A DNA stretch of 63,990 nucleotides, counting the filler, from an uncultured Methanosarcinales archaeon (GTDB lineage Archaea; Nanobdellota; Nanobdellia; Woesearchaeales; UBA12501): NCBI GenBank assembly GCA_964397315.1. It is 8 parts of 8 records of this genome, joined end to end, with 100 filler letters (N's around TTAATTAATTAA, not from the genome) between each part and the next. Parts side by side here need not be neighbours in the genome. Positions count along the whole stretch, not along the records: positions 37,016 to 44,770 come from CAYNHV010000043.1; 7 more parts are not named here. One strand, 5' to 3'. The notes under the pieces were generated by a model that saw only the letters and a list, made by a program, of their open reading frames with translations, was not told where the DNA came from and did not search any database. Position numbers and translations under genes: made by a program. Shown in pieces: positions 7,924-42,058 of the stretch (the first letter of the stretch is position 1; each line of letters starts with the position of its first letter).

Positions 7924-8079
7924 GGGGCTGTGGGGTAGCTTGGTCAGCTCACATCCGGATTTGCCGGGCGGGCTGTGGCAATTATCCTTTCTGGCTTGGG
8001 ACCAGATGACCCCGGTTCAAATCCCCTGGGCCAAAAGCAGGCTCTGATGACTCAGGGAGTGAAAGTCCGGGCAGCCCCA
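7924..8079 (+). tRNA. tRNA-Pro(TGG) with two non-canonical introns (7944-7981 at 19/20; 8022-8065 at 59/60)
   Basis: Acceptor GGGGCTG/CAGCCCC, anticodon arm TCTGG-CTTGGGA-CCAGA, T stem CCCGG/CCGGG; removing the introns restores D-loop AGCTTGGTTA and T-loop TTCAAAT. Confidence 0.92.
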
Positions 8080-26856: not shown

Positions 26857-27477
26857 TTAAGGCCTGGTCCATCTTATCTCATAATAGGTGACATCGTCCT
26901 CATCATCAACTATGCCTATCAGAAGCCTCTTTTTCGTTGAGTGCGCCACCCTGTTTTTTGCCGCGAACTCATACCAGGTGAGGGCCGAGCTCTCGTGCAC
27001 AGGATAAACTATCCATTTTGCATGATCCTCTCCGGGCTTTACTCCTCGGTCATAGACCCTGAAGTCAGCTCCGAACTTGAGGGCTGTCTTTATTATGTAT
27101 CCTCTGTTTCTTATGTCCCTGAACACGCAGTATCTTGTCCAGAAGTTGGGCTCAATCCTCTTGGCTTTCCTGATAAAGCCCTCCACTGTCATCTTCCTGT
27201 TGCTCTCGCTTCTGAGCTCAATCTTTCCCTTCTCAGCCAGGTATAGGGCTTCAATAAGGGAGAGCTGCAGCCTGCTGTCATCTTTTATCTTGCCGTATGC
27301 TCCCTGGTTGTAGAGCTCTCTGGCAGGGTCAGAGGACTCTGTAAGGACCCGTTCGTCCATCAGCTGGGCCTTTACCACTGCTTTCTTGTCTTTTTTAGCC
27401 TCTTCTCTGCCTTGCCTTGTCTGTTTCTCGCTTTCATCATTCCCTTCTTTTTTTGCTCTTGTCTTCTTCTTGGCCAT
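26857..27477 (-). CDS. endA: tRNA-splicing endonuclease, single catalytic unit
   Basis: LSLIEALYL, DIRNRGY, LKFGADFRVY (Tyr), EDHA (His), RVAHSTKK (Lys). Confidence 0.95.
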   Translation of the reverse strand: MAKKKTRAKKEGNDESEKQTRQGREEAKKDKKAVVKAQLMDERVLTESSDPARELYNQGAYGKIKDDSRLQLSLIEALYLAEKGKIELRSESNRKMTVEGFIRKAKRIEPNFWTRYCVFRDIRNRGYIIKTALKFGADFRVYDRGVKPGEDHAKWIVYPVHESSALTWYEFAAKNRVAHSTKKRLLIGIVDDEDDVTYYEIRWTRP

Positions 27478-41444: not shown

Positions 41445-41566
41445 TTCTTCGCAAGATTTTTAAAGAATTTGCATTGATTGTTAGTTGTTAGTCTGTTGGC
41501 GCGCATGGAGCGGGGTTTAGCTTTGCTAACCCCTCACTAATCTAGGTGTCAAGGGACGAAACCGTT

Positions 41567-41801
41567 GCGGGGGTTCCAGAGTGGTCAACTCAGGCCAGCA
41601 TGGCTGGCCTAAGACCAAATGGGTAGGCCTCAAGGGAAAGGGCTCATTGCTTTTTTGAGCAAGCCTATGGCTTAGACACGAGCGTAGCGAGTGTATGCTA
41701 CAACAGCTGCGCTGGTGGAGTAGTGCCTTCGAGGGTTCGAATAGTTGATGACAAGGTCAGCAACGACCGAGCGCATCAGCGCGAAAGTCCCTTCCCCCGC
41801 A
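41567..41801 (+). tRNA. tRNA-Leu(CAA) with four introns (41589-41618, 41635-41661, 41676-41723, 41742-41787)
   Basis: Five exons join into an 84-nt class II cloverleaf GCGGGGG TT CCAG AGTGGTCAA ATGG G TAGGC CTCAAGA GCCTA TGGCTTAGTGCCTTC GAGGG TTCGAAT CCCTT CCCCCGC A; BHB-type motif at each junction. Confidence 0.92.
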
Positions 41802-42058
41802 TTTCTTTTGTTCTCATGCAGGACAGAAACATTTAAATAATGAAATCCCGAACCAGCATTAAAATGCCAAAAAGTGATTCAGCGTGGCAATGACATGATT
41901 CTTTCTACTCAAAAGCATATTCAGAAGTGCATTGTTTCTCATGTCTTTTGGTGGCCTTGGGGCCTTTTCTGAGATCATAATCCAAAACCAGTTTCAAAAT
42001 TTTCTTCTTTTGCGCTCTTTAGAGCCAGGATTCATAAAACAACAGCGAGGTGCTGAAA

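Follow-up and report, generated by a model that had tools for sequence, protein, structure and literature searches.

Archaeal tRNA genes carry up to three introns per gene according to tRNAscan-SE 2.0 (2021). Higher loads have been reported for Asgard archaea, with intervening sequences averaging 2.2 and reaching up to five in a single tRNA gene (Goswami et al., bioRxiv October 2026), and 92–95% of the tRNA genes are interrupted in three Asgard genomes (Valentin-Alvarado et al. 2024). Broad specificity of the tRNA-splicing endonuclease EndA goes together with inserted loops, and DPANN archaea were described with an alpha4 EndA bearing the loop L3 and with incomplete tRNA sets (Kaneta et al. 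2018). Here, we describe a tRNA-Leu(CAA) gene that is divided by four bulge-helix-bulge (BHB) introns. It lies in a stretch of 63,990 nucleotides (nt), called the window below, in which small contigs of one assembly are joined with N spacers; the locus starts at position 4552 of contig C43 (7755 nt). The assembly of this genome (G000) comprises 1.47 Mb in 61 contigs and is rated 93% complete. The analysis followed up a prediction that had been made from the window sequence, referred to as the original prediction. We regard the locus as very probably a functional tRNA-Leu(CAA) gene, the only one in the assembly, of a Woesearchaeota-type DPANN archaeon.

The gene is 235 nt long, with exons that sum to 84 nt and introns that sum to 151 nt (Table 1). 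All exon and intron coordinates and lengths of the original prediction matched the sequence. When the exons were joined by their coordinates, ARAGORN identified the 84-nt product as tRNA-Leu(caa) with a full class II cloverleaf. Its acceptor stem has 7 base pairs (bp), its D-stem 3 bp with a loop of 11 nt and its T-stem 5 bp; an anticodon stem and a variable arm, with 3 bp and a loop of 5 nt, complete the structure. The long variable arm, the 3-bp D-stem with its long D-loop, A73 and the leucine anticodon in this structure are those of a class II tRNA-Leu. A73 and the variable arm are leucine identity elements. Energy minimization of the 84-mer also gave the cloverleaf, at −34.9 kcal/mol. The unspliced 235 nt gave no ARAGORN call with or without intron mode, and ARAGORN found zero tRNAs over the whole window. 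Rfam gave no match over the window at the gathering threshold, and at E≤10 the region 41450–41900 yielded a single microRNA match at chance level. Standard finders (ARAGORN and Rfam/Infernal) overlook the gene, as had been predicted. The five exons are collinear on one strand within the 235 nt, which sets the locus apart from split and permuted tRNA genes. Self-splicing group I or group II introns were ruled out by the lack of an Rfam match at either threshold and by the intron length of 27–48 nt, where such ribozymes measure hundreds of nucleotides.

To describe the splice sites, the BHB core was defined as a 4-bp central helix (H), in which the exon nucleotides before the 5′ bulge pair with the intron nucleotides before the 3′ bulge, with 3-nt bulges that are cut after the second nucleotide. 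Motifs with an outer and an inner flanking helix were classed as hBHBh′ and those with the inner helix only as HBh′; at least one flanking helix was required. The central helix has 4/4 pairs in all four introns, and the predicted helices and bulges were found at the exact boundaries. Sequence-equivalent shifted boundaries (3, 0, 3 and 1 alternatives for introns 1–4) gave at most 2/4 central pairs. All four introns fall into a canonical class (two hBHBh′, two HBh′). In a random control with 20,000 placements of introns of the same lengths in contigs C1–C3, equivalent shifts being allowed, a canonical class was reached in 1.27% of cases (hBHBh′ 0.15%, HBh′ 0.66%, hBH 0.46%). The motif check, the random control and the ARAGORN call on the spliced 84-mer together bear out a tRNA-Leu(CAA) with four BHB introns, one in each loop. 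Folding of the 235-nt precursor gave −106.1 kcal/mol (z = −5.31), and none of 200 shuffled sequences was as good. The acceptor, D, anticodon and T stems are already formed in the unconstrained precursor fold. When the cloverleaf stems and all four central helices with their bulges were enforced, the energy was −100.2 kcal/mol. The cost relative to the minimum is only ~6 kcal/mol, and therefore the four sites can be presented together and no splicing order is imposed. A role of intron 4 as C/D-box small RNA was rejected by eye: TGATGA is present, CTGA is absent, and homologues lack TGATGA.

Table 1. Coordinates of the tRNA-Leu(CAA) gene and of other features of genome G000. Positions are those of the window unless a contig is named.
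Feature	Position	Strand	Description
Exon 1	41567..41588	+	22 nt; acceptor 5′ strand, U8, D-stem 5′ strand, most of D-loop
Intron 1	41589..41618	+	30 nt; D-loop 21/22; HBh′; H GGTC/GACC, bulges AAC and AAA, inner 8-bp hairpin, no outer helix
Exon 2	41619..41634	+	16 nt; end of D-loop, D-stem 3′ strand, anticodon stem 5′ strand, anticodon CAA, G37
Intron 2	41635..41661	+	27 nt; canonical 37/38; strict hBHBh′; H CTCA/TGAG, bulges AGG and CAA, outer helix is anticodon stem, inner 6 bp
Exon 3	41662..41675	+	14 nt; A38, anticodon stem 3′ strand, variable-arm 5′ strand and part of its loop
Intron 3	41676..41723	+	48 nt; variable-arm loop; HBh′; H GCTT/GAGT (2 Watson-Crick and 2 G-U), bulges AGA and AGT, inner CAC/GTG and 8 more pairs
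Exon 4	41724..41741	+	18 nt; remaining variable arm, T-stem 5′ strand, T-loop TTCGAA
Intron 4	41742..41787	+	46 nt; T-loop 59/60; hBHBh′; H TTCG/CGAA, bulges AAT and AGT, outer helix is T-stem, inner 7 bp past one A·G mismatch
Exon 5	41788..41801	+	14 nt; T60, T-stem 3′ strand, acceptor 3′ strand, discriminator A73; CCA not encoded
TATA-like AT-rich box	41456..41468	+	putative archaeal promoter as read from the sequence, ~100 nt upstream of tRNA +1
T-rich run	41802..41809	+	immediately 3′ of A73; likely transcription stop as read from the sequence
Structured repeat	41503..41566	+	64 nt; ends one T before tRNA +1; model R1, 75.2 bits at C43:4488-4551
EndA, tRNA-splicing endonuclease	26857..27477	-	206 amino acids; one N-terminal and one catalytic domain; Pfam PF02778 and PF01974
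EndA N-terminal tail	27376..27477	-	residues 1-34, lysine/glutamate-rich
tRNA-Pro(TGG)	7924..8079	+	on C38; two introns
tRNA-Leu(TAA)	C16:1330-1477
tRNA-Gln(CTG)	C2:19159-19346	+	three introns
tRNA-Val(TAC)	C17:13225-13379	-	three introns
Further repeat copy	C8:37429-37492	-
Further repeat copy	C35:8211-8277	-
Further repeat copy	C9:17404-17471	+
Further repeat copy	C22:18091-18128	-

The distribution of the introns was then followed in related genomes. Orthologous loci were collected with two BLAST searches, one comparing the locus with 40 relatives and one comparing an intronless orthologue with the 17 family genomes, and were aligned to the spliced product with a custom spliced-alignment routine. 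Loci aligned with the wrong isoacceptor reference have unreliable boundaries and were left out of the count. Twelve Leu(CAA) orthologues were obtained, all of them collinear, 84 nt long after splicing and called tRNA-Leu(caa) by ARAGORN. The gene has no intron in G004, which belongs to the same genus as G000, and in G011, G012 and G020. One intron at the canonical site is found in G001, G013, G009, G015 and G037, and two introns (37/38 and 59/60) in G002, again of the same genus. Four introns are present in G000 and in G007, a member of another genus, where they occupy the same four sites with lengths of 40, 50, 43 and 42 nt; three of the G007 introns fall into canonical classes and the fourth has 3/4 central pairs. 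All 24 cloverleaf pairs are kept in 11 of the 12 orthologues and 23 in the remaining one, and between 1 and 8 two-sided compensatory changes separate each orthologue from G000. Hence the exons evolve under equal constraint whether or not the gene is interrupted.

Intron 1 is precisely absent from G001, G002 and G004, and its site is occupied in G007. A homologue of intron 2 is present in G001 and G002, and G004, G011, G012 and G020 lack it. A homologue of intron 3 occurs at the same site in G007 and, as judged by eye, also in a tRNA-Leu gene of G017. A 295-nt contig from run X4, which belongs to a different study, matches positions 41566–41672 and then 41721–41801; introns 1, 2 and 4 are kept, and the gap corresponds to exactly the 48 nt of intron 3 (41673–41720, with a 3-nt ambiguity). 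Taken together, the relatives and the X4 contig provide, for each intron, natural examples that have it and natural examples that lack it precisely. Contigs of three public DNA runs, X1, X2 and X3 (3054, 7703 and 848 nt), carry the four-intron gene without differences, X1 and X2 being possibly the source of the assembly. A pattern search of metagenomes for carriers of intron 1 (exon 1, gap, start of exon 2) gave 0 matches.

Within the assembly, a spliced-alignment scan of both strands found neither a second Leu(CAA) gene nor an intact intronless copy. The C43 gene scored 144/168, and the next loci, with scores of at most 105, were other leucine isoacceptors. Higher peaks just 3′ of the C43 gene were chaining artefacts of the same gene. 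In long open reading frames (ORFs), TTG accounts for 1506 of 24,658 leucine codons (6.1%).

The genome also encodes enzymes for tRNA maturation. The gene that the original prediction had named as EndA carries the two Pfam domains of this enzyme and is the only PF01974 match in G000. No paralogue was found by tblastn in the assembly; the only other match (C2, E = 0.39, 28% identity over 113 residues, inside a 304-amino acid ORF) was judged spurious. As expected for an alpha4-type enzyme, a single gene combines the N-terminal and the catalytic domain, and no gene for a second subunit was found. Residues 59–206 align without gaps to the alpha4 enzyme of M. jannaschii (1a79). Compared with the alpha subunit of N. 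equitans, the catalytic domain has 2+4 residues fewer at the site GVKP..GE....DH, which we take to be the location of the L3 loop. EndA was matched in 15 of 17 genomes of the family, with one gene each and 56–83% identity; the G008 gene is in two fragments. In an alignment of eight of the 15 family sequences, the catalytic domain contained no insertions or deletions, in G012 with its compact tRNAs and in the heavily interrupted G007 alike. The enzyme therefore looks like a permissive background and not like the cause of the differences in intron load. The lysine- and glutamate-rich N-terminal tail is found in varying form in all eight aligned family sequences and is absent from the aligning region of the solved M. 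jannaschii chain. This tail might contact RNA. RtcB (552 bits) and an archaeal RNase P RNA (108 bits) are encoded in G000 as well.

We infer that the precursor is transcribed, cleaved and ligated in vivo along the following route. One precursor comprising the leader and the 235 nt would be transcribed. Each of the four loops would be extended by an intron that builds a local BHB, in which the four exon nucleotides 5′ of the 5′ splice site pair with the four intron nucleotides 5′ of the 3′ splice site. The single EndA would cut after the second nucleotide of every 3-nt bulge, giving eight cuts, and RtcB would ligate the five exons to the 84-nt class II tRNA. RNase P and CCA addition would then complete the ends. 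Because the four motifs are local and compatible in one fold, a fixed order of splicing would not be needed.

Several observations weigh against a functional gene that is spliced in this way. Introns 1 and 3 lack an outer helix, and two of the four pairs in the central helix of intron 3 are G-U. The covariance score of 53.3 bits with RF00005 (cut-off 29) is that of a proxy, the intronless G004 orthologue (77 of 84 positions identical). EndA looks like a plain alpha4 enzyme without known specificity loops, the absence of L3 being read from one alignment; this counts against the proposed splicing because broad specificity has been tied to inserted loops (Kaneta et al. 2018). Since the assembly is 93% complete, a gene for a second EndA subunit or another Leu(CAA) gene could be missing from it. 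Finally, among the public runs examined, no RNA run containing the locus was found, and the contigs aligned to it were all DNA. This last result would also fit a decaying pseudogene, that is, a tRNA-Leu(CAA) gene broken by four insertions whose product is not matured, so that UUG would be read by tRNA-Leu(UAA). A tRNA-Leu(TAA) gene exists on contig C16, tRNA-Leu(UAA) could in principle read UUG by wobble, and TTG is a minor leucine codon in G000. Nevertheless, such decay appears improbable. Removal of the introns leaves the full set of 24 stem pairs and the conserved loop residues undamaged, the four insertions all lie at spliceable BHB boundaries, and the same layout is found in another genus together with compensatory stem changes. 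Furthermore, most other tRNA genes of G000 are built alike and no other Leu(CAA) gene was found.

It is slightly less probable again that only some of the segments are removed as proposed, with intron 3, for example, being retained, cut elsewhere or in need of another factor. The central helix of intron 3 with its G-U pairs and without outer helix points in this direction, as do the EndA without a known specificity loop and the unconstrained precursor fold, in which the isolated 4-bp central helix of intron 4 is not formed. However, exactly these 48 nt and nothing else are missing in the relatives and in the environmental contig, and the G007 homologue of intron 3 has a stronger helix, GCTT/GAGC, in the same place. 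Retention of intron 3 would moreover lead to a variable region of ~60 nt, which is seen in no orthologue. An assembly or binning artefact with a chimeric join of tRNA fragments, for which the short contig in a 61-contig bin might speak, is very improbable, as the contigs of three runs cover the locus without differences, even if two of these runs may be the source, and as the exon order recurs in the independent genomes G007, G002 and G001 and in the X4 contig, with subsets of these introns.

A functional four-intron gene can be placed in the context of the other tRNA genes of the genome. On the complete assembly, ARAGORN reported 8 tRNA genes, of which four had odd anticodon calls; in single-intron mode the number was 21. 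Infernal found 16 tRNAs over the cut-off, none of them on C43. At E≤0.01, Infernal gave 45 tRNAs for G012, where they are compact, 32 for G014, 29 for G004, 20 for G001 and 14 for G007. A census of G000 was performed with tRNA references from G012, G004 and G001 and a spliced aligner over both strands. Products without ARAGORN call or with an odd anticodon and those with scores below 55% of the maximum were dropped, and duplicates were merged. With the compact tRNAs of G012 as sole references, the C43 gene was too divergent to be recovered at ≥55% of the maximum score. The census, which is rough, comprised 34 validated tRNA genes with 57 introns (mean 1.68), and 31 of the 34 genes were interrupted. 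No intron was found in 3 genes, one in 9, two in 19 and three in 2; the two genes with three introns, for tRNA-Gln(CTG) and tRNA-Val(TAC), carry them in the D-loop, at 37/38 and in the T-loop. The tRNA-Leu(CAA) gene with four introns is the maximum of the census. When shifts of up to 4 nt were allowed, a tolerance that has no matched null, 40 of the 57 introns fell into a canonical BHB class. Errors in the references led to mislabeling of some genes in the census: the C43 gene came out as 'Val(cac)' with a displaced intron 2, and a Met gene as 'Ser'. Genes for His, Ile, Asp, Pro-CGG, Ala-CGC and other tRNAs were not validated or not found, and isoacceptors outside the census could be as interrupted as the Leu(CAA) gene, or more. 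The expectation that interrupted genes inflate counts of 'missing' tRNAs holds for this genome, where at least 34 genes by spliced alignment stand against 8 by ARAGORN and 16 by Infernal with Rfam. This explains in concrete terms why DPANN bins seem short of tRNAs.

Recurrent intron sites in the genome are the D-loop at ~20–23, position 37/38 and the T-loop at ~58–60. To these, the Leu(CAA) gene adds the variable-arm loop, a site available in class II tRNAs only. A spliced tRNA-Leu(TAG) gene of G017, from another family of the order (L088 883-1100, +), also contains four introns, in the same regions as those of the G000 gene (D-loop, 37/38, variable-arm loop and T-loop); the one in the variable-arm loop is related to intron 3. 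Three introns were found after splicing in tRNA-Leu genes of G023 and G029. Within the window, the tRNA-Pro(TGG) gene has one intron of ~38 nt in the D-loop region and one of 44 nt in the T-loop, the latter with an hBHBh′ motif; it is also missed by ARAGORN and Rfam.

No other copies of any of the four introns were found within G000, and recent copying within the genome was rejected on this ground. In the G017 relative of intron 3, the inner helix CAC/GTG is replaced by CAA/TTG, a compensatory change identified by eye. Intron 4 of G000 and intron 4 of the G007 orthologue share no homology. A clear relative of the G000 intron was found in G040, where an intron of 46 nt occupies the same T-loop position of a tRNA-Ala(CGC) gene (L087 1499-1561, -) and shows compensatory changes in its inner stem. 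When metagenomes were scanned with the ends of intron 4, 12 contigs were retrieved (L249–L260). For 10 of these, splicing of the host gene produced a tRNA accepted by ARAGORN, with two at low alignment scores and one ambiguous. The hosts were Lys-CTT (twice), Gly-TCC, Ala-CGC, Arg-TCT, Glu-TTC, Arg-TCG and Trp-CCA, together with two weaker calls, which places the T-loop 59/60 intron family in at least these seven tRNA species. Several of the intron-4-like segments share a AACGACCGAG-like internal core that lay outside the search pattern, and their consensus fold consists of the T-stem and the TTCG/CGAA helix with the 3′ bulge. Comparison of these sequences suggests that intron families move from one tRNA gene to another, using a site where all tRNAs share the exon half of the motif. 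Movement of introns between tRNA genes was proposed earlier for the Thermoproteales (cited in Goswami et al., bioRxiv October 2026).

A broader proposal combines the enzyme with the intron distribution. One plain alpha4-like EndA, with no L1-, L2- or L3-type insert and only a lysine-rich N-terminal tail, might splice relaxed HBh′ motifs at non-canonical sites genome-wide in a Woesearchaeal family. Small intron families moving between tRNA genes would repeatedly colonise hot spots at four fixed places, namely the D-loop, 37/38, the variable loop of class II tRNAs and T-loop 59/60. We put this forward tentatively and consider it somewhat doubtful in its full extent. If it is true, the rule that a plain alpha4-type EndA cuts strict canonical BHBs only would be contradicted, and the 0–4 introns in one gene among close relatives would represent a living series.

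The assignment of the host follows from a neighbouring gene on C43, which encodes a class I aminoacyl-tRNA synthetase (PF00579). Its best relatives (84% and 79% identity) are found in bins labelled Candidatus Woesearchaeota, in agreement with the Woesearchaeota-like genome proposed originally, and further relatives carry labels of other DPANN groups. Synteny of the synthetase gene with the tRNA gene was rejected: 80 related loci gave no BLAST match to the 235 nt and no ARAGORN Leu(CAA).

Directly upstream of the tRNA gene lies a structured repeat, which has no match to an Rfam family. Three parts make up the repeat: a hairpin whose GAGC-RAA-GCGA loop region is conserved, a linker with the conserved sequence CACTAATCT, and a 3′ module containing GAAAC. 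The hairpin covaries, with two-sided changes in 5 of 7 pairs. The repeat abuts the first nucleotide of tRNA-Leu(CAA) with a one-T spacer in G000, G001, G002 and G014. A covariance model built from 11 copies detected it in 16 of 41 genomes, with 23 copies in G003, 15 in G014, 13 in G013 and 7 in G000. Besides the leader copy, the 6 copies of G000 have weaker scores, and they sit 3′ of tRNA genes. Judged from this distribution, the repeat is a dispersed element concentrated near tRNA genes and not a dedicated leader. A hammerhead-like ribozyme that makes the tRNA 5′ end was excluded, with no CUGAUGA core recognized by eye and no Rfam match at E≤10; the presence of RNase P RNA and the position of the other copies 3′ of tRNA genes also rule it out. 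Tandem modules composed of a spacer, a variant of the repeat and a duplicated tRNA 3′ end were observed 3′ of tRNA-Leu(TAG) on C9 (17159–17519; L173 360-720), in a stretch that is partly N-masked. The duplicated ends comprise the T-arm and the acceptor strand and resemble stacked attachment-site remnants.

With four introns, the gene goes beyond the textbook maximum of three for archaeal tRNA genes, and its host belongs to the DPANN and not to the Thermoproteales or Asgard archaea. The series of 0, 1, 2, 3 and 4 introns among close relatives, together with a shared intron family, provides a natural system for the gain and loss of tRNA introns. The most interesting point raised by the locus is the heavy load of non-canonical introns next to a single unadorned EndA. 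As the sole EndA appears to lack known specificity loops and the genome nonetheless contains non-canonical introns, the question of what sets the substrate range of EndA becomes directly testable. The novelty claimed by the original prediction stands in part. The statement of up to three introns by tRNAscan-SE 2.0 is in line with it, and a literature search found no published four-intron tRNA of DPANN or Woesearchaeota; DPANN is mentioned nowhere (0 occurrences) in Goswami et al. (bioRxiv October 2026). For archaea in general the claim is weakened by the Asgard gene with up to five. Beyond the Asgard preprint, no published four-intron archaeal tRNA was found in the literature searched, which did not cover the per-gene table of Valentin-Alvarado et al. 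2024.

Compared with the described systems, the locus resembles the Thermoproteales (Pyrobaculum, Thermofilum and Caldivirga; Sugahara 2008, Fujishima 2010) in having several short EndA-removed BHB introns per gene, many of them at non-canonical sites, and in the recurrence of related intron sequences across different tRNA genes. It differs by four introns instead of at most three, by the DPANN host and by a single alpha-type EndA without evident insert in place of the (alpha-beta)2 EndA with the L1/CSL loop. With the Asgard archaea (Valentin-Alvarado et al. 2024; Goswami et al. 2026) it shares the interruption of nearly all tRNA genes, ~2 introns per gene and sites in the D-arm, anticodon, variable region and T-arm; many genes are overlooked by standard annotators and repeated gains are inferred there as well. 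However, the Asgard archaea form another superphylum, and two EndA paralogues are present in 44 of 60 of their genomes (Goswami et al., bioRxiv October 2026). The DPANN archaea with L3-bearing alpha4 EndA, including a Woesearchaeote, likewise have a single-unit EndA, raised tRNA disruption and incomplete predicted tRNA sets, but breadth of cleavage is tied to L3 in that case (Kaneta et al. 2018), whereas the EndA described here has no insert relative to M. jannaschii at the site of the extra residues of N. equitans. In a eukaryotic tRNA gene with three introns (2013 study), introns with hBHBh′ motifs again occupy the D-arm, position 37/38 and the T-loop, and the splicing intermediates were shown experimentally. 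Its D-arm intron is located in the D-stem and not in the D-loop, and an intron in the variable arm is lacking. The tRNA-Leu(CAA) gene is thus not a new kind of gene; it is an unusually well-supported extreme of a known mode of interruption.

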